DNA from: Bacteroidota bacterium
Lineage (GTDB): Bacteria > Bacteroidota > Bacteroidia > NORP154
Length of the DNA: 64,000 bases
Reading direction: 5' to 3'
Assembly (NCBI GenBank): GCA_043811005.1
Contig: JBDRNO010000094.1
Location: 319 to 64,318 of the forward strand
The notes under the pieces were generated by a model. It did no database searches and was not told where the DNA came from. It saw only the letters and a list, made by a program, of their open reading frames with translations. The position numbers and the translations under genes were made by a program. Positions within the stretch are counted from its first letter, which is position 1. The number at the start of each line of letters is the position of its first letter. This document shows, piece by piece, positions 3,548 to 53,806 of this stretch.

Positions 3548-3620
3548 GGTGCGGTAGCTCAGTCGGTAGAGCACAGGACTGAAAATCCTGGTGTCGGCAG
3601 TTCGATTCTGCCCCGCACCA
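3548..3620 (+). tRNA. tRNA-Phe (anticodon GAA)
   Basis: 73-nt cloverleaf folded by hand. Acceptor stem GGTGCGG/CCGCACC, D arm GCTC-AGTCGGTA-GAGC, anticodon arm CAGGA-CTGAAAA-TCCTG, T arm GGCAG-TTCGATT-CTGCC, discriminator A. No encoded CCA. Confidence 0.95.
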
Positions 3621-3779: not shown

Positions 3780-5408
3780 ATGAAACAAAATAAAAAAATT
3801 GTTCTGCTGATTATGGACGGATGGGGGTGCGGTGATAAGACCAGATCTGACGCTATAGCAAATGCCAATACCCCCTTTTTTGACAGCTTAATTAAAAAAT
3901 ATCCAAACACCCGGCTCTTTGCTCATGGTGAATATGTGGGCTTGCCACATGGACAAATGGGCAACTCGGAGGTAGGTCATTTAAACATCGGTGGGGGAAG
4001 AATAGTTTACCAGGATCTGGTAAAAATAAACAAAGCTATAGAAGATAAAAGCATTGATTCCAACCCGGTTTTGATAAAGGCATTCAATTATGCAAAAGAA
4101 AAAGGGAAGAATGTTCATTTCCTGGGGCTTGTGTCTGATGGCGGTGTGCATTCCTCGCAGGAGCATCTTCACAAACTTTGCACTATGTGTAAGGATAATG
4201 GATTAAGCAATGTATATATTCATGCCTTTATGGATGGCAGGGATACCGATCCTAAGAGCGGTTTGGGCTTCATCTCCAGATTAGAAGACCACCTCTCCCC
4301 CGGCCCCTCTCCGAACATCCCCCTTGCACCCTTCAAAGAAGGGGGACTGGAGAGGGGAGACCCGGCGCGCAGGCACTCCCTTCTACCAACTGGCAGAGAG
4401 GGCAAGGGAGGGATGATCGCTTCTATAATTGGCAGGTACTATGCTATGGATAGAGATAAAAGATGGGAAAGAATAAAAGTGGCTTACAACATGCTGGTTA
4501 AAGGTGTTGGAGAAAAAACCACAGATGTTTTAATTGCCATTAAAAAATCATACGATACGGGAATTACCGATGAGTTTATAAAACCAATAGTGAGAGTAGA
4601 CGAATATAATAATCCGGTTGGAAGAATTGAGGAAGGCGATGTGGTCATTTGCTTCAACTTTCGCAACGACAGGTGCAGGGAGATAACGCAAGTATTAACC
4701 CAAATGGATTTCCCAGAGAACAAAATGCAAAAAATGAACTTGCATTACAATACCATGACCAATTATGACATTACTTTTAAAGGTATTAACGTTGTTTTTG
4801 AGAAGGAAGATGTTAAGATGACCATAGGGGAAGTACTGTCTAAAGCCGGTAAAAAACAGATAAGAATTGCCGAAACCGAAAAGTATGCTCATGTTACTTT
4901 TTTCTTTTCAGGTGGCAGGGAAGAACCTTTTAAAGGAGAAAAGCGGATACTTATCCCATCACCAAAAGTCGCAACTTATGATCTGAAACCCGAAATGAGC
5001 GCTTATAAAGTAACTGATGCCATCACAAAAGAGCTGAAAGAAGCAGAAACCGATTTTATCTGCCTGAACTTTGCCAACACTGACATGGTTGGGCATACGG
5101 GCTTTTATGAAGCAGTTGTAAAAGCGGTTGAAACAGTTGATACCTGTATAAAAAAGGTAGTGGAAGAAGGCCTTCAGAATGGTTATTCATTTATTATTAT
5201 TGCCGATCACGGCAATGCAGATTATATGATCAATGATGACGGCTCTGAGAATACAGCGCATAGTAACAATCCCGTTCCATGTATCTTGATTGATGAAGAT
5301 TATAAAGATATTAAAGAGGGTATACTGGCTGATGTAGCTCCCACAATCCTGACATTGATGGGAATGGAGGTTCCCGGGGAGATGACTGGGGAGGTTTTGA
5401 TTAGTTAG
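3780..5408 (+). CDS. gpmI: 2,3-bisphosphoglycerate-independent phosphoglycerate mutase carrying an in-frame inserted element
   Basis: MDGWG..., [33 protein letters not shown] and ADHGNA are hallmark iPGM motifs. At 542 aa it is about 30-35 aa longer than usual because of the block at 4292-4408. Confidence 0.93.
4292..4408 (-). repeat. GC-rich nested palindromic element, in frame inside gpmI
   Basis: Inverted repeats cccctctcc/ggagagggg, ccccctt/aaggggg and ctccctt/aagggag. The reverse complement begins GGTCTCCCCTCTCC, like the copies at 18656 and 53586. Confidence 0.75.
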
Positions 5409-18452: not shown

Positions 18453-19796
18453 CTAATGAATTTTTTTGGTTGATAAACAATTTGCAACTTCCTTATAAAC
18501 CTCATCAACAGATATTTCTTGCATACAAACATTGTTAATACATGGGGAGAACCTGTGATTAAAAGCATTTACGCAGGGGCTGCAGGCGAGTTTTTTCCAG
18601 ATAACATGAATGTTAGCCGTTTCATGTGCGGATGTTTTAGTTAGCCTTTGCGGAAGGTCTCCCTCTCCTCTTCGCCTTCGCGTAGCTTCGAGCGAAGCAA
18701 GGTCGGGGAGGGTCGGGGTGGGGCTGGTGGCACGGCTTAATGGACCAAAAAGTTCAGGCGTCTCCGGACCAAACATCACTACTGTTTCAATATCTGTCAA
18801 TGAAGCAAAATGACCCGGACCGCTGTCGTTAGTCACCAAAACATCGGCAAGGGTATAGAGAACCATCACATCCCTTAAAGTTGTTTCACCTGCTACACTG
18901 ATAACATTAGAACTGCCGATTTTGGCGCATATTTCTTCCGCTGCATTTTTTTCAGAAGGCGCACCGGTAATTACCAATATTACGTCCTTATGTTCAGCTA
19001 AAATCTTTTTACCCAATTCTATAAATCTTTCCGCTGGCCATTTTCTCAGAGGCAGCATATCACTTGCATTTGGATTGAGCAACACAATGGGACGATCAAT
19101 TTCCAGTCCCAATTTTTTTGAAAGAAGCGCCTTAACCTTTGCTTTCCCCTCTTCCCCAGGGTGAAATTCAGGTATCTCTATTTTTATGTCTTTAACCGGA
19201 ACTTTTAACAAAGGCACTTCATTCCTGTCCATTGTAAGAGCTTCCACCAATAAGAGATACGCTTTGGAAGTATGTAAATATGGATTGTACTGAATTCGGT
19301 GGGTCATTAAATCTCCGCGATAAGGCAACTCGCTTGTAAACCTGTGTAATCCCACACGATTTGCAGCTCCACTTAAATAAGCTATAATTGCAGATGCACG
19401 GGAAAAGAACTCCATGTCAACGGTTGTATCAATTTTTTCTTTCCGGGCTTTAATAAAGAACATTAAAATATCTGAACAAAAAACAAGGAAATTGCTTTGG
19501 CGGATGGTGAGGATATTTTCAGGTGGAATGATATTTAATATATCCAATATCGGACGGTTATCTTCAAATACACAGAAATAGACATTTTCCCTGCCAACCA
19601 GTTGTATTGCGCGTTTGATAGCCGAATAAGCCAGGACTGTAGCGCACTGTTCGATCAATTTAATAAAAATTATTTTGCGTGGCTTGTCATTCCCGGGAAC
19701 GGAGAAAACCCTGATGATGGACCTGAATAAAGTAAACTTAAAGCATAATGGCTGACCGATCCATTTGTCTATTATTTTAATTGTTTTTGGAGTCAT
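18453..19796 (-). CDS. Glycosyltransferase family 9 (heptosyltransferase-like) with an in-frame GC-rich insert
   Basis: RKWPAERF, VITGAPSEK, LVTNDSGPGHFA and CSPC are GT9 motifs. The extra segment SRATSPTPTLPDLASLEATRRRRGEGDLPQRL is encoded by the repeat at 18656-18724. Confidence 0.8.
   Translation of the reverse strand: MTPKTIKIIDKWIGQPLCFKFTLFRSIIRVFSVPGNDKPRKIIFIKLIEQCATVLAYSAIKRAIQLVGRENVYFCVFEDNRPILDILNIIPPENILTIRQSNFLVFCSDILMFFIKARKEKIDTTVDMEFFSRASAIIAYLSGAANRVGLHRFTSELPYRGDLMTHRIQYNPYLHTSKAYLLLVEALTMDRNEVPLLKVPVKDIKIEIPEFHPGEEGKAKVKALLSKKLGLEIDRPIVLLNPNASDMLPLRKWPAERFIELGKKILAEHKDVILVITGAPSEKNAAEEICAKIGSSNVISVAGETTLRDVMVLYTLADVLVTNDSGPGHFASLTDIETVVMFGPETPELFGPLSRATSPTPTLPDLASLEATRRRRGEGDLPQRLTKTSAHETANIHVIWKKLACSPCVNAFNHRFSPCINNVCMQEISVDEVYKEVANCLSTKKIH
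18656..18724 (+). repeat. GC-rich palindromic element (GGTCTCCCTCTCC...GGGGAGGGTCGGGGTGGGGC family), in frame inside the GT9 gene
   Basis: Shares its head and tail with the 53586-53622 copy. It carries an extra internal gcttcg-ag-cgaagc hairpin. Confidence 0.75.
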
Positions 19797-26099: not shown

Positions 26100-26106
26100 C
26101 TAACAA

Positions 26107-26190
26107 CATTGGGGGTGTCCACCAGCTGGCGGACTGAGATCATACCCTTTGAACCTGATGCAGGTAATGCTGCCGTAGGAAAAAGCAATG
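26107..26190 (+). promoter_or_regulatory. TPP (THI-box) riboswitch aptamer
   Basis: The sequence cattgGGGGTGtccaccagctggcggaCTGAGAtcatACCCTTTGAACCTGATgcaGGtAATGCtgcCGTAGGAAaaagcaatg contains the conserved CUGAGA, ACCCUUUGAACCUGAU and AAUGC...CGUAGG(G)AA blocks. P1 pairs cattg/caatg. It lies upstream of thiS-thiC. Confidence 0.9.
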
Positions 26191-26281
26191 ACCCATCTCA
26201 ATTTCCCCCCAAATATTTTTATAGTTTACTCATGAAATAATTTCTTTTCAAAGGTATTACTCACTCTCATATTAGTTTATA

Positions 26282-40931: not shown

Positions 40932-43900
40932 CTATTGACAAATCACTTTCCTGGTAATCACAGCGCTATCAGTTACAACTTGCACGTAGTACATGCCCTT
41001 GTGGTATTTGCCCAGGTCAATCTGCTTATGGAGCATACTTGTATGTTCGGAGCAAATTAGCTGTCCCTGCATGTTGAATATCCTGATCGTTATATCTTGT
41101 CCCGAACCTGCCGGGGACAAAGCAGGGGTGAGATTGAGGATCAAATTAAACAACCCCCTGTTGGGATTGGGGTAAACTATTACTTGATCCCCTTCTGTGA
41201 TGTGGAGTTGATCAATGCCTGTAATAGAAGTATTGAAACATAATATGTAGTCATCAAGTGAAATACTGTTGATTATGGTTGCGGTATTATAGCCCGCTCC
41301 TCCTGAACCCAGGGTACCTCCGTTGGTAACATTCCAAGTGGGATTACTTACAATTGTGTCGCCTGCTGAATGGTTGCATCCGCTTATCCCGTTGTCATCG
41401 GTTCTGATCAAATACATCTCCATATCCCCTTCTTCAACCCCTCCTCCAAAACTGCTGGAAAATCCTGCGACAATGAATCCACCATCAGATGTTTGCTGAA
41501 CCGAATAACCGCTTTCGGAAAATTCTCCGCCAAAGGTTTTAGTCCATAACAGATCTCCATTGGCATCGGCACGGATCAAATAAACATCCTCTCCATTGGC
41601 TGCGGTACTGCTTGTTACCCCTGTGAAGATATATCCACTATCTGAAGTTTGCTGAACTGAATAACCGTAATCACCACCGCTTTCCCCATAAGTTTTTGAC
41701 CAGGAAATGTCACCGGCAGCATTGGTTCGGATCAAATAAACATCATAGCTGCCTGCGCCAAAGCTGTTAGTATATCCGGCTATAATATATCCTCCATCAG
41801 TAGTCTGCCGGACCGACCATCCTTCATCTTCATCTGTCCCACCAATGGTTTTAGTCCACTCCGTATCTCCATTTACATCGGTCTTGATCAAATAAACATC
41901 AGCATCTCCCGCACCAAAGCTGTATGTATAACCTGTTATGATATATCCTTCGTCAGATGTTTGCTGAATCGAATAACCGCAATCGAAACCTGTTCCACCG
42001 ATGGTTTTCGTCCACAACAAGCCACCGTTATCATCTGTATGTACCCAATAAAAATCACTCAATCCTGCTCCAAAGCTGTTGGTTCCACCTGTGAAAGTGT
42101 ACCCGCCATCATTGGATTGCAAAACGGAAAACCCTCTATCGTCTCCGGTTCCACCATAGGTTTTTGTCCACAATATATCTCCATCGGCATCCGTGAGGAT
42201 CAAATATATATCATAATCCCCGGCTCCAAAGCTATTGGTGTAGCCAGCAATTATATAACCGCCATCGTTAGTTTGCTGAACGGAATATCCACGATCGTCA
42301 CCGGAGCCGCCATAAACCTTTGCCCATAAGATATTAGCATTGTCATCAGTACGTATCAAACAAACATCAGCATCTCCTGCACCAAAACTTTTGGTATATC
42401 CTGCAATAATATAACCGCCATCTGTGGTTTGCTGAAGAGACCTGCTAAAACCATCATTTGTTCCCCCAAAGGTTTTTTGGAAAACCCAGACATTATTATC
42501 ACTAACTGCAACACCGGCATTATTAACACACCCGTTATTATCAGTTACTACTATGTTATAAACTCCCGCAGCTAAGCCGGTTGCCAAATCGGTTGTCTGT
42601 AAAGCAGGGTCATCCCATTGATATGAATATGGCTGATTGCCTCCGTATGCAGTTACCCCGGCAGAACCACTGTTCCCTGAAATATCAGGAGAAGCAATTG
42701 TTGCTAAGATCAAAGTTAAGGGTTCATTAATAATTAATGTACTTCCGGTTTGAACGCATAATTTAGCATCCCTTACCTTTACAGTATAGCTGCTTGCGCT
42801 CAAGCCGGTAAAGATGCCGGTAGTATTGGGGTAAGTAATTCCGTTATTAATCGAGTAGCTTTTAGTCCCGGTACCTCCGCTTGCGGTTAATGTAATTTTT
42901 CCGTCAGTCAGTCCATTGCAAGTGATATCTGTTGATGCTTCCGAATTAATAGTTACTTGTGTTGGTTCGGTAATATTTATACTTTGGGATTTTGAACAGC
43001 CGTTTGCATCGGTAACAATTACTCCATATACTCCAGCTGCAAGACTGTATATTGATGATGATGGTACACCAGATACTGTTACCCCGGTTGACCAGTAAAA
43101 AGTATAAGGAGTAGCTCCACCATTTACAGCTGCTGTAATATATCCATCATTACCACCATTGCAATCCGCGTTTTTACTTGTAATAGTTATATTCATAGGT
43201 GGTGGTTCAATAATGGTTACATTATCCATTCCTTCACATCCGTTACCATCAGTAACGTTCACCGTATATACTCCTTCACAAAGAGTATTTGCGGTTGAAT
43301 TGGTTTGAGTAAACGAGTCGTTCCACGAATAAGTGTAAGGAGGAGTACCTTGAATGGAGGTTGCAGTGGCGCTTCCATCACATATCCCACCACAGACGGG
43401 ATTTGTACTACTTGTGATGTTGGTATAAAATGATATAGAGATAATAGCCGAATCAAAACATCCGTTAGCATCATTAACAATAACCTGAACAGTACCGGAA
43501 TGAAGGTTGACAGCAGTTGAATCGGTCTGTGAATCCGGGTCATTCCATAGATATGAATAGGGAGGTGTTCCACCAGCAGGGGTAACAGTTGCAAAAGCGG
43601 AAGAGTCTGCATTGCACAAGACGGGTACGGAATCGGTGGTGCTTAAAGATAAAACGGGTGGTTGTGTTAAAGTTACAGTTGCGGAATTAAAACATCCAAT
43701 AGCATCATAAACAATAACCTGATAAGTACCCGGAGGTAAGCCGGTAGCAATTGACCCGGTTTGTAAAGAGGAATCGTCCCATGAATATGTAAAAGGAGAA
43801 GTTCCGCCAGAGGGGGTGACCGTAGCTGTACCGGAAGAACCTCCATAACACAGCACGTTGGTTGAATCCGTGATACTGACGGAAAAATTAAGCTTATCAA

Positions 43901-45215
43901 CGTCTGTGGCTGTATTATTAACAATAGTTGTTGTATTCATAACTGTAGCTCCTGATCCTATATTTGTTCCTGTTGAATTAACCAGGGTAAGGGGAAGAAT
44001 TCCAATAGTGCCGGCAGCGGTTTGATAACATCCTCCGTCATATCCAACAGAATCGGTTTTGATAACAAAGATATCATAGCCCCAGGAACCATAACTCTGT
44101 GTTTCACCTAAAATAATAAAGCCACCGTCAGCAGTTTGCTGTAAAGAATAACCAATATCGTCATCCGGTCCGCCAAAGGTTCTTGTCCATACAGTATCGG
44201 CATAAGCATCGGTTTTGATCAAATAAACATCAATACCCCCTGCTCCAAAACTACTTGTATTCCCTGCGAAAATACATCCGCCATCAGCAACATGCTGGAC
44301 TGAGAATCCATAATCTATACTATCTCCACCAAATACTTTTGAACAAAGAAGATTTCCAATGGAATCGGTTTTGATTAGATAGATATCATCAATCCCTGAT
44401 CCAAAGCTATTTGTGGAACCACTAATAATAAACTCCCCATTATCAGGTTGCCTGACTGAATAGCCGAGATCATCACCTGTTCCTCCAAAGGTTTTTGCCC
44501 ATAGAGTATCACCAATAGAATCGGTTCTGATCAAATATACATCAACCGCACCGGCTCCAAAACTGTTTGTCTGACCTGCGATAATATACCCCCCATCAGC
44601 AGTTTGCTGAATGGAGCTGCCAATATCACTGTTTATTCCACCAAAGGTTTTTGTCCATAAAGTATCACCAACAGAATCGGTTTTGATTAAATAAACATCA
44701 TCGCTTCCGGCTCCGAAACTGTTGGTATATCCAATGATAATATACCCGCCATCAAAGGTTTGATGAACTGCATTGCTATAATCTAGACTATCTCCACCAC
44801 AGGTTTTTGTCCATAGAGTATCACCAATAGAATCGGTTTTGATCAAATAAATATCATAGTTTCCGGCTCCGAAACTGTTCGTATATCCGCTGACAATGAA
44901 TCCATTATCAGAGGTTAGCCCGACTGACTTACCAAAATCGTCACCAGACCCTCCATAAGCTTTTGTCCATACAGTATCACCGTTAGCATCGGTCTTGATC
45001 AAAAAAACATCATTGCCACCTGCTCCAAAGCTGTTCGTATATCCTGTAAAAATATAACCGCCATCAGCAGTTTGCTGGATTGATCTGCCGTGATCGTCAG
45101 ATGTTCCGCCAATGGTTTCTTGAAAATCCTGTCCTGCACATGAGGAAATCATTTGCGTGATGGGATTTAATGTAATTAAGCAAGCGACTGAAATTGTAAT
45201 TAATGAGGATTTCAT
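40932..45215 (-). CDS. Giant T9SS type A cargo protein with two arrays of ~50-aa propeller-like repeats flanking SprB/HYR-type Ig repeats
   Basis: There are more than 14 repeats of the form GG.G.D.G.SV.QT.DGGYII.GYTNSFGAG..D.YLIKTD..GD..W.KT. The central repeats read C.G...G.ATV...GGT.PY.Y.W.D. The C-terminal Por secretion tail reads VIVYPNPNRGLF...IFNMQGQL...GMYYVQV. Confidence 0.85.
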   Translation of the reverse strand: MKSSLITISVACLITLNPITQMISSCAGQDFQETIGGTSDDHGRSIQQTADGGYIFTGYTNSFGAGGNDVFLIKTDANGDTVWTKAYGGSGDDFGKSVGLTSDNGFIVSGYTNSFGAGNYDIYLIKTDSIGDTLWTKTCGGDSLDYSNAVHQTFDGGYIIIGYTNSFGAGSDDVYLIKTDSVGDTLWTKTFGGINSDIGSSIQQTADGGYIIAGQTNSFGAGAVDVYLIRTDSIGDTLWAKTFGGTGDDLGYSVRQPDNGEFIISGSTNSFGSGIDDIYLIKTDSIGNLLCSKVFGGDSIDYGFSVQHVADGGCIFAGNTSSFGAGGIDVYLIKTDAYADTVWTRTFGGPDDDIGYSLQQTADGGFIILGETQSYGSWGYDIFVIKTDSVGYDGGCYQTAAGTIGILPLTLVNSTGTNIGSGATVMNTTTIVNNTATDVDKLNFSVSITDSTNVLCYGGSSGTATVTPSGGTSPFTYSWDDSSLQTGSIATGLPPGTYQVIVYDAIGCFNSATVTLTQPPVLSLSTTDSVPVLCNADSSAFATVTPAGGTPPYSYLWNDPDSQTDSTAVNLHSGTVQVIVNDANGCFDSAIISISFYTNITSSTNPVCGGICDGSATATSIQGTPPYTYSWNDSFTQTNSTANTLCEGVYTVNVTDGNGCEGMDNVTIIEPPPMNITITSKNADCNGGNDGYITAAVNGGATPYTFYWSTGVTVSGVPSSSIYSLAAGVYGVIVTDANGCSKSQSINITEPTQVTINSEASTDITCNGLTDGKITLTASGGTGTKSYSINNGITYPNTTGIFTGLSASSYTVKVRDAKLCVQTGSTLIINEPLTLILATIASPDISGNSGSAGVTAYGGNQPYSYQWDDPALQTTDLATGLAAGVYNIVVTDNNGCVNNAGVAVSDNNVWVFQKTFGGTNDGFSRSLQQTTDGGYIIAGYTKSFGAGDADVCLIRTDDNANILWAKVYGGSGDDRGYSVQQTNDGGYIIAGYTNSFGAGDYDIYLILTDADGDILWTKTYGGTGDDRGFSVLQSNDGGYTFTGGTNSFGAGLSDFYWVHTDDNGGLLWTKTIGGTGFDCGYSIQQTSDEGYIITGYTYSFGAGDADVYLIKTDVNGDTEWTKTIGGTDEDEGWSVRQTTDGGYIIAGYTNSFGAGSYDVYLIRTNAAGDISWSKTYGESGGDYGYSVQQTSDSGYIFTGVTSSTAANGEDVYLIRADANGDLLWTKTFGGEFSESGYSVQQTSDGGFIVAGFSSSFGGGVEEGDMEMYLIRTDDNGISGCNHSAGDTIVSNPTWNVTNGGTLGSGGAGYNTATIINSISLDDYILCFNTSITGIDQLHITEGDQVIVYPNPNRGLFNLILNLTPALSPAGSGQDITIRIFNMQGQLICSEHTSMLHKQIDLGKYHKGMYYVQVVTDSAVITRKVICQ

Positions 45216-47501: not shown

Positions 47502-47649
47502 TTTGACTAACCCCGACCTTCAGGTCGGGGTAAAGAATACAATTAAACACACTGGGGTTTTAACCCCCAATTTCCTTGTTTGTTATGGGCTAAAGCCCAA
47601 TTGGGTATCAGGATTTTAATCCCCGACTTAAAAGTCGGGGTTAGTCAAA
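47502..47649. repeat. 148-bp composite palindromic element containing four GC hairpins
   Basis: The outer perfect 16-bp inverted repeat is tttgactaaccccgac (47502-47517) / gtcggggttagtcaaa (47634-47649). The internal hairpins are ccccgacc-ttca-ggtcgggg, ggggtt-tt-aacccc, gggct-aa-agccc and ccccgac-ttaaaa-gtcgggg. Confidence 0.7.
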
Positions 47650-48774: not shown

Positions 48775-48975
48775 ATTCCTCATTTCGTTCCGCTGCGCTC
48801 CACTAAATTCGGAATGACAGCGTTTTTGAGAGAAACGTGGAGGGAGAGCGGTTGCGGGAACATAGAGCCGCTGCATACAACGTCTATACATTCCTGTTCC
48901 CGCACCCGCTCTCCCTCTTTACAAAAAAAATCACTGTCATTCCGATCCGCCAGCTGGCGGAGGAGTGAGGAATCT
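48775..48975. repeat. 200-bp nested palindrome built from two REP-like units around a 23-bp-stem hairpin
   Basis: attcctca (48775-48782) / tgaggaat (48966-48973). cggaatgacag (48810-48820) / ctgtcattccg (48934-48944). gagggagagcggttgcgggaaca / tgttcccgcacccgctctccctc has one mismatch in 23. The right unit contains CCGCCAGCTGGCGG. Confidence 0.75.
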
Positions 48976-50758: not shown

Positions 50759-52732
50759 ATGCTAAGATATTTAGTCCTATTGCTACTTTTATTTGGCATG
50801 AACATCTTTGTGCCAATAAGTTATGCCCAAAAACAAGGTAATATCTGGTATTTCGGAGATGGTGCAGGATTGGATTTTAACAGCGGGGTTCCTGTTGCAT
50901 TAACTGATGGACAAACCTACTTTGCAGATTTCCATAATGAAGGTACTGCCGTAATATCAGACAGTTCCGGCTCCCTGTTGTTTTACAGCAACGGGGAAAA
51001 AGTGTGGAACCGGTATCACCAGGTTATGCCAAATGGAAACGGTTTGTTGGGACATCTTTCTTCAACACACGCTGCCTTTATTGTACCGAAACCCGGGAGT
51101 GAGATATTGTTCTATCTTTTTACTTCAGATTCTTATTATCAAAATGATTTAAAGAACGGTTTTAGATATTCGATAATCAATATGTGTTTGGATAATGGGC
51201 AGGGTGACATTGTTCCTGGAACCAAAAATATACTCTTATTGGATACTGTTGCAGAAAAAATTTCAGCTATAAAACATGCTAACAATATTGATTATTGGGT
51301 TATTACTCATAAATATTTTTCTGATGCCTTTTATGCTTTTTTATTGACAAGCAATGGGATTGAAGATACAGTTATTACGTATATTGGGTCTGTACATGAG
51401 GAAAATTGTATTCCTCCTAGTCCTAACTTAACAAGAGCTGCAATAGGACAAATTAAAGCTTCTCCTGATGGAACGAAACTGGCATTAGTCAATACCAATA
51501 CTTGCACGAATATTTCAGAATTGTTTGATTTTGACAAATCAACAGGAATTGTTTCCAACATTATTGATTTAAATACAAATGATGAAGGATGGTATGGTCT
51601 TACTTTTTCACCTGATAACACGAAGCTATATAAAACACACCTTTCTGAGACCAGAATCATTTATCAGTATGATCTTTCCGCAGGAGGAGGACATCCTGAT
51701 TCAATAATAAATTCTGAGAACTTAATTTCATTTATGTCTACAGGTGGTGTAGGTGCTGCGCATAGCCTGCAAATCGGTCCCGATGGAAAAATATATGTTG
51801 CTCGAGGGGATAAGAATTTTATAGCAGTAATCAATAATCCCAATTTTTATGGTGCAGCATGCAATTTTGAGGACAGTGCGGTTTATTTAAACGGCAAAAT
51901 ATGTTCGTATGGCTTGCCCAATTTTATTGACAATTATGATTATTCTAGCACAGGGGTTACTTTACCCCCCATAGCAAACATTACAGGACCTGCATCGATC
52001 TGTTCAGGAGACAGTGTGGAACTGATATCCGGTATCGCTGCCTCTTATGTATGGCTATTTAATGGCTTGCCCATAATACCTGGAACAACACAGACTATTA
52101 TTGCATCATCAGCCGGGGATTACCAGGTAGCAGCAATAAACGATTGCGGAGCGGATACATCGGCTATAAAAACGATAACCGTAGATCCTTTGCCTGATGC
52201 AGATGCCGGTAATGACACTGCTATTATTTCAGGAAGCAGTGTTCAATTGTCCGGCTCTGGGGGCATAGTATATTCATGGAGCCCATCAGCAGGTTTGAGC
52301 GATCCCAATATTTCCAACCCTTTAGCATCCCCAACAGAAACAACTATTTACTACCTTACTGTTACAGATACAAATGAATGTTCAGATACGGATTCGGTAA
52401 TTATCACGGTCATGGATTCCGTAATTATCCCGGTTCCTGATGAATTGGATATATTCATACCTGATATTTTTTCACCCAACGGGGATGGAGAAAATGATGT
52501 TTTATATGTTTATGGTAAAGCGATAGAAAACATATTATTTGTTGTGTATGACAGGTGGGGAGAGAAAGTTTATGAGGCAAAGGAAGTTACAAACGGACAG
52601 GATGGTGAGGTCATCGCGGGATGGAACGGCACTTTCGATAACAAACCACTGGACCCTGCTGTTTTTGTATATTATCTTGAGGTAAATGATGGGGCGATAA
52701 TTAAAAAGGGGAATATTACCCTGATACGCTGA
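50759..52732 (+). CDS. T9SS type B (gliding-motility CTD) surface protein with an N-terminal propeller-like domain
   Basis: Signal peptide, then GNIWYFGDGAGLDFNSG. The C-terminus reads IPDIFSPNGDGENDVLYVYG...YDRWGEKVYE...GWNGTF....LDPAVFVYYLEV...GNITLIR. Confidence 0.85.
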   Translation: MLRYLVLLLLLFGMNIFVPISYAQKQGNIWYFGDGAGLDFNSGVPVALTDGQTYFADFHNEGTAVISDSSGSLLFYSNGEKVWNRYHQVMPNGNGLLGHLSSTHAAFIVPKPGSEILFYLFTSDSYYQNDLKNGFRYSIINMCLDNGQGDIVPGTKNILLLDTVAEKISAIKHANNIDYWVITHKYFSDAFYAFLLTSNGIEDTVITYIGSVHEENCIPPSPNLTRAAIGQIKASPDGTKLALVNTNTCTNISELFDFDKSTGIVSNIIDLNTNDEGWYGLTFSPDNTKLYKTHLSETRIIYQYDLSAGGGHPDSIINSENLISFMSTGGVGAAHSLQIGPDGKIYVARGDKNFIAVINNPNFYGAACNFEDSAVYLNGKICSYGLPNFIDNYDYSSTGVTLPPIANITGPASICSGDSVELISGIAASYVWLFNGLPIIPGTTQTIIASSAGDYQVAAINDCGADTSAIKTITVDPLPDADAGNDTAIISGSSVQLSGSGGIVYSWSPSAGLSDPNISNPLASPTETTIYYLTVTDTNECSDTDSVIITVMDSVIIPVPDELDIFIPDIFSPNGDGENDVLYVYGKAIENILFVVYDRWGEKVYEAKEVTNGQDGEVIAGWNGTFDNKPLDPAVFVYYLEVNDGAIIKKGNITLIR

Positions 52733-53585: not shown

Positions 53586-53622
53586 GGTCTCCCTCTCCCT
53601 TCGGGGAGGATCGGGGTGGGGC
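53586..53622 (+). repeat. Short copy of the GGTCTCCCTCTCC...GGGGAGGATCGGGGTGGGGC element
   Basis: GGTCTCCCTCTCCcttcGGGGAGGATCGGGGTGGGGC has the same head and tail as 18656-18724. It sits exactly at the breakpoint of the orphan gene fragment. Confidence 0.7.
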
Positions 53623-53629
53623 GGCTCTT

Positions 53630-53727
53630 CCTTCCACAAACCCCTGGACCCTGCTGTGTTTGTATATTATCTTGAGGTAAATGATGGGGATAGAATGAAA
53701 AAGGGGAATATTACACTGGTACGCTGA
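53630..53727 (+). pseudogene. Orphan 3' fragment duplicating the C-terminal end of the 50759-52732 T9SS gene
   Basis: About 97 nt parallel 52631-52732. A 46-nt core (ctggaccctgctgt.tttgtatattatcttgaggtaaatgatgggg) has one mismatch. It translates to ..FHKPLDPAVFVYYLEVNDGDRMKKGNITLVR*. There is no start, and an upstream in-frame stop lies at 53569-53571. Confidence 0.75.
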
Positions 53728-53806
53728 CCGCGTTCGCATAAAGCTTTAGCGGTTGCGAAAGCTGCAGGGTAAACTTTGGTAAGATAAACTTCCAATTTAA
53801 ACAACT

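Follow-up and report, generated by a model that had tools for sequence, protein, structure and literature searches.

Probable in-frame insertion of a dispersed, BoxC-like repeat in the phosphoglycerate mutase gene of a Bacteroidota bacterium

The gene for cofactor-independent phosphoglycerate mutase (iPGM; gpmI) of a Bacteroidota bacterium, represented by a metagenome-assembled genome (MAG; GenBank assembly GCA_043811005.1), contains a GC-rich palindromic block that is an insertion, present in this gene and absent from its orthologs. The gene lies in a stretch of 64,000 nucleotides (nt) of contig JBDRNO010000094.1, which was analysed as a whole and is referred to here as the window. The block belongs to a dispersed repeat of which the window carries three copies of one architecture, and a second copy lies in a glycosyltransferase gene; the reading frame is preserved in both genes. 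We consider it likely that these are tolerated in-frame insertions of a dispersed non-coding repeat which resembles the BoxC element in sequence and the Rickettsia palindromic elements (RPEs) in behaviour. The features concerned are listed in Table 1.

An earlier reading of the window, made from the sequence alone, had claimed that gpmI reads through a block much richer in GC than the gene, without a stop or frameshift, and that the block contains three nested pairs of inverted repeats; all of this was borne out, and the peptide that it quoted after ...SRLEDHL is identical to that found here. The GC content is 65.7% for the insert, 40.0% for the remainder of the gene and 37.4% for the window, of which the insert is the largest GC island. 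The three inverted-repeat pairs are CCCCTCTCC (4304–4312) with GGAGAGGGG (4349–4357), CCCCCTT (4319–4325) with AAGGGGG (4339–4345) and CTCCCTT (4376–4382) with AAGGGAG (4403–4409). None of the three sense frames of the insert contains a stop codon and, therefore, only its length, a multiple of three, is left to be explained. Each end of the block is placed only to within a few codons, and the block could reach to about 4410 if the codons of an EGKGG linker are included. Its size (34 amino acids (aa), 102 nt) and the absence of a matching family led us to reject an intein or intron.

The alignment with orthologs that the sequence-only reading had proposed for delimiting the indel showed that, relative to the nearest relatives, a net 34 aa (102 nt) have been gained at about 4296–4397. 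The three closest orthologs are 77–78% identical to the window protein outside the block and are 500–511 aa long, and typical orthologs have 504–511 aa, versus 542 aa for the window protein. At the empty site, the nearest orthologs read HL-KNSAG-TIAS or HL-EGSAG-MIAS, with five residues where the window protein has 39 (HL-[34 aa]-EGKGG-MIAS). Measured from DGRDTDP to GRYYAMDRD in 109 parseable iPGM orthologs, the segment extends over 25 aa in 82 proteins, 26–27 aa in six and 32–43 aa in 20, while the single protein with 59 aa is that of the window. The sharing of the segment by orthologs, which would have spoken for an ancestral linker, was not observed, and no other protein among the 5.8 billion searched carries the insert. 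Moreover, a 40-aa translation of positions 4293–4412 gave just two weak matches among 1.84 billion representative sequences. The better of these (P0241, 331 aa; E = 1.4e-5) is a repetitive open reading frame (ORF) with four SDPIRRHTLFPTGR units which resemble a 14-residue stretch in the tail of the gpmI insert, and we attribute the match to chance or low complexity.

The gpmI product matches the Pfam families Metalloenzyme (2e-83) and iPGM_N (2e-78), and the best solved structure for it is the iPGM of Bacillus stearothermophilus (PDB 1ejj; 2e-150). In the alignment with this structure, residues 173–209 stand opposite only four Bacillus residues, 172–175, so that the earlier figure of about ten residues at this site in Bacillus-type enzymes has to be corrected. 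All columns that are invariant across an alignment of 61 orthologs are retained in the window protein, S63, D13, D435/H439, D476/H477 and H494 among them, and they include the catalytic serine and metal ligands. An AlphaFold prediction based on the same alignment has a mean predicted local distance difference test (pLDDT) score of 86 and a predicted template modelling (pTM) score of 0.80. Residues 176–207 are predicted to form a disordered coil, with pLDDT below 50, between helix 161–172 and strand 212–218 of the transferase domain, in agreement with the earlier expectation that the insert would map to a linker, and the fold outside the coil is predicted confidently. An ordinary tRNA gene (3548–3620) lies immediately upstream of gpmI.

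The second gene encodes a glycosyltransferase of the GT9, or heptosyltransferase, family and its insert lies 14 kb from that of gpmI. Orthologs of this protein are about 400–410 aa long versus 447 aa in the window, and an alignment with PDB 1psw breaks off at the insert. The spacing between the motifs TNDSGx and CxPC is 42 residues in 119 of 120 orthologs and 40 in the remaining one, compared with 81 in the window protein; the latter reads FGPL[SRATSP...SAHET]ANIHVIW where the nearest ortholog has FGPLGDNVHTIW. The GC content of the insert is 0.608 versus 0.390 in the gene. This insertion is clean and unique among the orthologs, and the peptides encoded by the gpmI and GT9 copies differ.

The earlier claim that the gpmI element shares its head with sequences at 18656 and 53586 was confirmed: the window contains three instances of GGTCTCCC(C)TCTCC, at 4349–4362 on the minus strand and at 18656–18668 and 53586–53598 on the plus strand, with 0.00 occurrences expected from 100 shuffles. 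Read in the same sense, the three copies share a single layout. The head of the gpmI copy, containing CCCCTCTCC, is followed by a 36-nt hairpin centre, GGAGAGGGG, CC and GGGGGAGAGG; the 18656 copy has a head with CCCTCTCC, a 36-nt hairpin centre, GGGGAGGG, TC and GGGGTGGGG; and the 53586 copy has a head with CCCTCTCC, then CTTC, GGGGAGG, ATC and GGGGTGGGG. Copies 2 and 3 have in common the 13-nt head and TCGGGGAGG(G/A)TCGGGGTGGGGC, 22 nt with one mismatch. In the gpmI copy, G-stem 2 contains an exact mirror of G-stem 1, the position of the third strand in a purine-motif triplex. The window was scanned for a pyrimidine stem followed by its reverse-complement purine stem and then the mirror of the latter, with A or T allowed opposite A and at most one mismatch. 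With 8-nt stems, the scan returned the gpmI and GT9 copies, two loci compared with 0.02 in shuffled sequence, and with 7-nt stems it returned exactly the three copies and nothing else in the 64 kb (shuffle mean 0.05; none of 100 shuffles reached three).

Copy 3 adjoins a 35-residue remnant of a CHU_C gene (...GWGGSSFHKPLDPAVFVYYLEVNDGDRMKKGNITLVR*; 53600–53730), with no intact gene at this site. The remnant is 85% identical in DNA to the 3' end (52617–52732) of a paralogous ORF at 50759..52732, from which it is separated by a DUF4160/DUF2442 gene pair. The location at the edge of a truncated gene fits the reported link of such motifs with rearrangement.

Table 1. Coordinates of the repeat copies, their parts and the genes that carry them. 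Positions refer to the 64,000-nt window.
Feature	Coordinates	Strand	Remarks
gpmI, cofactor-independent phosphoglycerate mutase	3780..5408	+	ORF intact, 542 aa
In-frame inserted block in gpmI	4296..4397	+	net 102 nt, 34 aa; codon alignment with empty sites of L123, L124 and L001
G-stem 2, GGGGGAGAGG	4292..4301	-	overlaps Leu172 codon of conserved His-Leu
G-stem 1, GGAGAGGGG	4304..4312	-	Watson-Crick partner of C-stem
Expanded loop 1	4313..4348	-	36 nt, own hairpin (CCCCCTT 4319–4325 pairs with AAGGGGG 4339–4345)
Head GGTCTCCCCTCTCC with C-rich stem CCCCTCTCC	4349..4362	-	stem at 4349–4357
Second small hairpin, 3' tail of block	4376..4409	+	CTCCCTT, 20 nt, AAGGGAG; within RNA minimum-free-energy fold
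GT9 (heptosyltransferase-family) glycosyltransferase ORF	18453..19796	-	447 aa; Pfam PF01075, 1e-20
In-frame inserted block in GT9 gene	18618..18737	-	net +39 aa, 117 nt; FGPL[SRATSPTPTLPDLASLEATRRRRGEGDLPQRLTKTSAHET]ANIHVIW; codon alignment with L122
Triplex-motif core, copy 2	18656..18724	+	GGTCTCCCTCTCC, 36-nt hairpin loop, GGGGAGGG, TC, GGGGTGGGG, C; on GT9 template strand
Minimal copy 3	53586..53622	+	GGTCTCCCTCTCC CTTC GGGGAGG ATC GGGGTGGGG C; 5' edge of truncated CHU_C (type IX secretion system, T9SS) gene fragment

The closest known relative of this architecture is the BoxC or PIT element, on which there is reportedly earlier work by Bachellier et al. and, in 2000, by Hoyne et al. It was renamed TMECO and defined as an intrastrand triplex motif with the consensus CCCTCNCCC-N3-6-GGGNGAGGG-N3-GGGNGAGGG, for example CCCTCTCCCTGTGGGAGAGGGCCGGGGTGAGGGC (Holder et al. 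2015, PMC4666352). The same study counted 3610 copies in 262 proteobacterial genomes, together with many related GC-rich motifs in cyanobacteria, and 23 copies in Escherichia coli MG1655, all of them intergenic; TMECO loci were unusually variable and indel-prone among E. coli strains, and no tie to transposons, phages or plasmids was found (PMC4666352). All three window copies show the triplex-motif architecture in our own scan with stems of 7–8 nt, and along one strand their blocks succeed each other as in TMECO: first a C-rich stem of the CCCTCTCC type, next the G-rich complement of this stem, and then, after a short CC or TC(G) loop, a mirror G-stem of the GGGGTGAGGG or GGGGTGGGG type. They resemble TMECO, too, in forming GC-rich islands with several copies per genome, in their association with local rearrangement (copy 3) and in the occurrence of palindromic double versions (L002 and L003, see below). 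The strict consensus describes none of the three, either because of loop length or because of stem register: the gpmI copy reads CCCCTCTCC-N36-GGAGAGGGG-CC-GGGGGAGAGG, the GT9 copy CCCTCTCC-N36-GGGGAGGG-TC-GGGGTGGGG and copy 3 CCCTCTCCC-TTC-GGGGAGG-ATC-GGGGTGGGG. The stems are register-shifted or 7–8 nt long and, unlike TMECO, the window copies have an additional conserved GGTCT head. The window elements are related to TMECO in architecture but do not belong to the E. coli family.

In behaviour, the elements invite comparison with the RPEs, said to have been reported by Ogata et al. in 2000, and with intragenic sequences of the miniature inverted-repeat transposable element (MITE) and enterobacterial repetitive intergenic consensus (ERIC) types, said to have been treated by Delihas in 2007. 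Rickettsia genomes are AT-rich. The window elements have 60–66% GC and occur in another phylum, so that kinship in sequence with RPEs is not expected. In-frame palindromic repeats are already known in the form of RPEs, intragenic ERIC sequences and MITEs (PMC10969869). Like RPEs, the window elements are short palindromic repeats which lie in frame in unrelated housekeeping genes, where they would add a peptide at positions compatible with the fold (PMC10969869), and copies occur in coding and non-coding DNA alike. Both genic copies are in-frame palindromic insertions with an open ORF (gpmI +34 aa, GT9 +39 aa) and, since the second is as clean as the first, the behaviour is RPE-like, as the sequence-only reading had suggested. 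RPEs are about 100–150 bp long and encode family-specific conserved peptides, whereas the peptide of the window elements is not conserved, given the two weak matches among 1.84 billion representatives and the differing peptides of the genic copies; no direct alignment to an RPE consensus was made. The earlier statement that no equivalent was known for Bacteroidota stands in so far as the literature searched contains no description of in-frame elements of this kind in the phylum; the element does, however, have a sequence relative in the BoxC/PIT/TMECO motifs of Proteobacteria and cyanobacteria.

Two further groups of small repeats show partial similarity. Intragenic MITEs and ERIC-type sequences, such as the MITEs of Anabaena, are small non-autonomous repeats which are able to fuse in frame with host ORFs (PMC10969869), but MITEs carry terminal inverted repeats and target-site duplications matching a parent insertion sequence and neither was found for the window elements. 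Repetitive extragenic palindromic (REP) sequences and REPINs, which are mobilised by REP-associated tyrosine transposases (RAYTs), are likewise short GC-rich hairpin repeats, often arranged as inverted pairs or in variable mosaics (PMC3116915, PMC3733652). REPs are extragenic by definition and have a GTAG or CGTC end tag (PMC3733652), whereas the window elements start with GGTCTCCC and lack the tag, and no RAYT gene or Y1 transposase was detected among the 40 window ORFs scanned.

Similar elements were found in other genomes. In GCA_038918275.1, a related MAG with an insert in its own gpmI, one more locus was identified by the scan (L002:3802-3877), a palindromic double triplex motif lying in frame in uvrA, where it accounts for 38 residues (APSPSLPHPVLSDTPLHVERGRGEVEGNRKQLLGEGSK) instead of eight in Thermotoga UvrA. 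The same uvrA gene is split into two ORFs (L002:2440-2810) at a GC-rich stretch with a run of nine C residues (GGGGCCCCCCCCCAGCCC), which may reflect either a frameshift or an error of sequencing, and further on it contains an in-frame tandem repeat of QLAVGN type. Three metagenome contigs (L131, L132 and L137; Ga0082212, 44–48% GC) share a 36-nt short form (APPQPSPNGEGDL), which lies in frame within an uncharacterised ORF of about 340 aa, and L132 has an additional SPSGEGRGG stretch where L137 differs. Another triplex-motif locus, L003:13107-13164, is intergenic. Scans of public genomes and metagenomes with exact patterns were noisy: the genome pattern GGTCTCCC(N)TCTCC...CGGGGNGGG produced listed matches mostly from high-GC genomes, including conserved coding matches in Streptomyces and Kocuria. 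Among the matches listed, the same arrangement was seen in Prevotella, Anaerolineales, Bradyrhizobium and other Rhizobiales, Longimicrobium, Syntrophaceae, Verrucomicrobia and Chthonomonas, with the G-rich complement present although the genome pattern did not require it. Several listed copies per MAG occurred in Anaerolineales, some in tandem, and in Longimicrobium.

According to the explanation that we prefer, a short, GC-rich, non-coding dispersed repeat would have been copied into gpmI in the lineage of the source MAG. The repeat would be built of a C-rich stem, the G-rich complement of that stem and a further G-rich stem in mirror image, and its loops would contain variable hairpins. The gene would stay open because the added DNA has a length of 3n and lacks stops in the sense frames. 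Translation of the repeat would yield a 34-residue loop, rich in proline, glycine and arginine and predicted to be disordered, which links a helix to a strand in the transferase domain; since this linker tolerates length variation, the enzyme presumably still works. The same event would have taken place in the GT9 gene. We infer that the element has no function, being selfish or neutral, and that it spreads by copying, and the comparison of presence and absence among orthologs suggests that it is mobile.

Several observations weigh against this explanation. The gpmI copy has only the 14-nt head and the architecture in common with the other two, without extended identity, and the two genic inserts have little in common in their 38-nt tails, so that the copied unit has no clear limits; moreover, the copies compared are three in number and all come from the 64-kb window. 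Comparison of filled and empty sites in both genes revealed neither a target-site duplication nor a common terminal repeat, and the copies have unrelated ends. Of the 41 window ORFs that are 110 aa or longer, 40 were scanned against Pfam, all but the 1427-aa ORF at 40935..45215, and none of these is a transposase. With respect to TMECO, loop 1 of the two genic copies is 36 nt long and itself a hairpin rather than 3–6 nt, the host is an AT-rich member of the Bacteroidota rather than one of the Proteobacteria (or the cyanobacteria, with their related GC-rich motifs), and intact genes carry two of the three copies in frame, unlike the all-intergenic set of E. coli MG1655. Finally, the GT9 product is absent from the collection of 5.8 billion proteins while the gpmI product of the same contig is present; the GT9 gene may not be annotated as a coding sequence in the source record.

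The lack of a target-site duplication, the unrelated ends and the absence of a nearby transposase, together with the stalling of DNA polymerase at PIT elements in vitro and the indel-prone nature of TMECO loci, lead us to favour spread from a non-B structure which stalls the polymerase, either by template switching linked to replication or by illegitimate recombination. Classical cut-or-copy transposition is less favoured, and an enzyme encoded outside the window may mobilise the element in trans.

The element could, alternatively, have been co-opted as a working nucleic-acid structure, either as an mRNA hairpin affecting translational pausing or mRNA stability, or as a template-strand triplex or G-quadruplex affecting transcription or replication; this we regard as distinctly improbable. 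A region of 129 nt is predicted to form a strong RNA fold (-61 kcal/mol, z = -2.5), but the hairpin energy of the gpmI element alone is unexceptional for its composition (DNA z = -1.5; RNA z = -2.5), these ViennaRNA values covering hairpins only, with triplexes outside the model. Experiments in vitro have shown stable triplexes for TMECO oligonucleotides and a block to DNA polymerase for PIT elements, yet neither an in vivo triplex footprint nor promoter or terminator activity was found in E. coli (PMC4666352). The loops and tails differ freely among copies and most orthologs lack the element. A search of the whole window against Rfam at the gathering threshold yielded no family for it; at an E-value threshold over 4150–4550, the archaeal H/ACA RNA Pab91 was matched at 4301–4357 (minus strand) with 33.8 bits compared with a gathering score of 71, and it was rejected as a GC-hairpin look-alike. 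The hairpin in the 3' tail of the block has no further copy in the window.

The orientation of the copies bears on the same question. The three genic loci with non-palindromic copies (gpmI, GT9 and L131/L132/L137) all have the G-rich strand as template and the C-rich strand as mRNA, and they also agree in reading frame at GGA GAC C, but the coincidence concerns three loci and is not significant. The C-rich strand may be the one tolerated in the mRNA since an RNA G-quadruplex would result from the G-rich strand, GGGGAGGGTCGGGGTGGGG; the opposite sense would place the textbook G-quadruplex motif GGGGAGGGUCGGGGUGGGG in the mRNA, a plausible reason for the orientation.

The linker that received the block has been occupied repeatedly. 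Extra residues are present in 21 of the 109 Bacteroidota iPGM orthologs, including that of the window, or about 20% of those examined. The other 20 proteins have gained between 7 and 18 aa in the same linker, with inserts that are shorter than and different from that of the window and that include the peptides NPSPALPKGEEV, LTPALSKGEGV, SLPFGEGRGGV and KPHPLIPSPIGEGAGGEV. The gpmI insert of L002 is a perfect nested palindrome, CACCTCACCCC-CTT-CCCCTCTCC-AGTT-GGAGAGGGG-...-GGGGTGAGGTG (fold z -9.6), and so is that of L003 (fold z -7.2), both belonging to the motif of the window copies; the L003 sequence was recovered with identical sequence from two samples, L003 and L004. Inserts in L147 and L148 are AT-richer with eroded hairpins, and they are presumably older; the window insert, still at 66% GC, appears recent by comparison with these decayed inserts at the same site. 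When the linker was masked, a neighbour-joining tree required at least 16 changes by parsimony, with absence at the root, but the tree is weakly resolved (65–70% identity) and we conclude from it no more than that there were several independent events. Within the five-residue linker, the position of the insertion varies. A second iPGM loop, from ...KEL to DFICLN, has lineage-specific, GC-rich, in-frame inserts in P0094 (L002:11200-11300), P0014 and P0009, that of P0094 being VGSKENGERSSGQSPDSQPLTP.

These data bear on the possibility that the block grew in place, by extension and perfection of a short quasi-palindrome in the linker through intramolecular template switching. In the window, L002 and L003, one arm has the conserved His-Leu codons, CAC CTC, as its outer part and the other arm ends in GAGGTG, and both the missing target-site duplication and the hairpins nested within loops would suit such growth. 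Nevertheless, we judge it very unlikely: local growth gives no account of a 13/14-nt head and G-box that are common to distant loci of the window and to other phyla, and CACCTC is dispensable. Its candidacy as a general microhomology target was rejected since L147, L148 and L149 carry inserts next to CAT TTA or CAT TTG while the uninserted L150 and L001 have CAC CTT. Given its absence from three inserted orthologs, the hotspot is most simply explained by structural tolerance combined with a steady supply of insertions.

Similarly low in probability is an ancestral or selected variable linker of the Bacteroidota iPGM, serving, for example, as a regulatory or interaction loop, whose GC-richness and palindromy would be incidental. 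A repeatedly long loop could be useful, and the extra residues in the 21 orthologs often form similar peptides, for example (S/P)xxGEG..G(E)V. However, the nearest relatives lack the segment and the short state lies at the root, the inserts vary from +7 to +34 aa and in sequence, and the loop is predicted to be disordered. It is, moreover, the DNA architecture that is conserved, and it is common to unrelated loci, namely the GT9 gene, the edge of the gene fragment, uvrA and L003:13107-13164. A chimeric join, a mis-assembled repeat or a binning artefact in the MAG contig is extremely improbable: although the exact gpmI protein comes from a single MAG contig and GC-rich repeats are prone to assembly trouble, the frame and all downstream invariant residues are kept, a second window gene shows the same phenomenon, and analogous in-frame palindromes occur at the gpmI site in independent NCBI, ENA and JGI assemblies, one of them identical in L003 and L004.

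BoxC/PIT/TMECO elements, which were described as intergenic, have had neither a function nor a means of spread assigned to them in about 30 years. The same architecture, in frame in intact housekeeping genes of an unrelated, AT-rich phylum, widens the host range and provides insertion polymorphisms whose clean filled and empty sites can be used for working out the insertion mechanism. Triplex-motif repeats and in-frame palindromic repeats are each known, but their combination, the host phylum and the hotspot appear to be undescribed in the literature searched. The elements would constitute a second, independent case, beside the RPEs of Rickettsia, of selfish repeats acting as a recurrent source of extra protein loops, and the iPGM loop, filled with inserts of different ages in about a fifth of the orthologs examined, amounts to a natural experiment. 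A bolder generalisation, which is rather unlikely to hold, would see BoxC-like triplex repeats as phylum-spanning, self-propagating DNA that routinely colonises AT-rich Bacteroidota genes in a preferred orientation (G-rich template) and frame, as a steady source of disordered surface loops, with loops such as that following the iPGM His-Leu being hit repeatedly by a sequence- or structure-directed mechanism beyond tolerance. In practice, such blocks lengthen proteins and can prompt pseudogene calls, and they are worth masking or flagging in MAG annotation.

Other features of the window were noted in passing. Intergenic GC-rich inverted repeats occur at 47502–47530/47621–47649 (TTTGACTAACCCCGACCTTCAGGTCGGGG and its partner) and at 48840–48862/48895–48917 (GAGGGAGAGCGGTTGCGGGAACA and its partner), and a perfect 16-nt palindrome, TCCGCCAGCTGGCGGA, is located at 48946; several families of small palindromic repeats seem to be present in the genome. 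The ORF at 40935..45215 (minus strand, 1427 aa) contains about a dozen diverged 156-nt tandem units in two blocks (41396–45095) and looks like a repetitive surface protein. The atpD gene was considered as a further insertion site, with 245 residues on a 213-position profile, and rejected as an unrelated lineage insert of normal AT content without a palindrome. An ordinary thiamine pyrophosphate (TPP) riboswitch (26101–26198) precedes the thiC-thiamine gene cluster.

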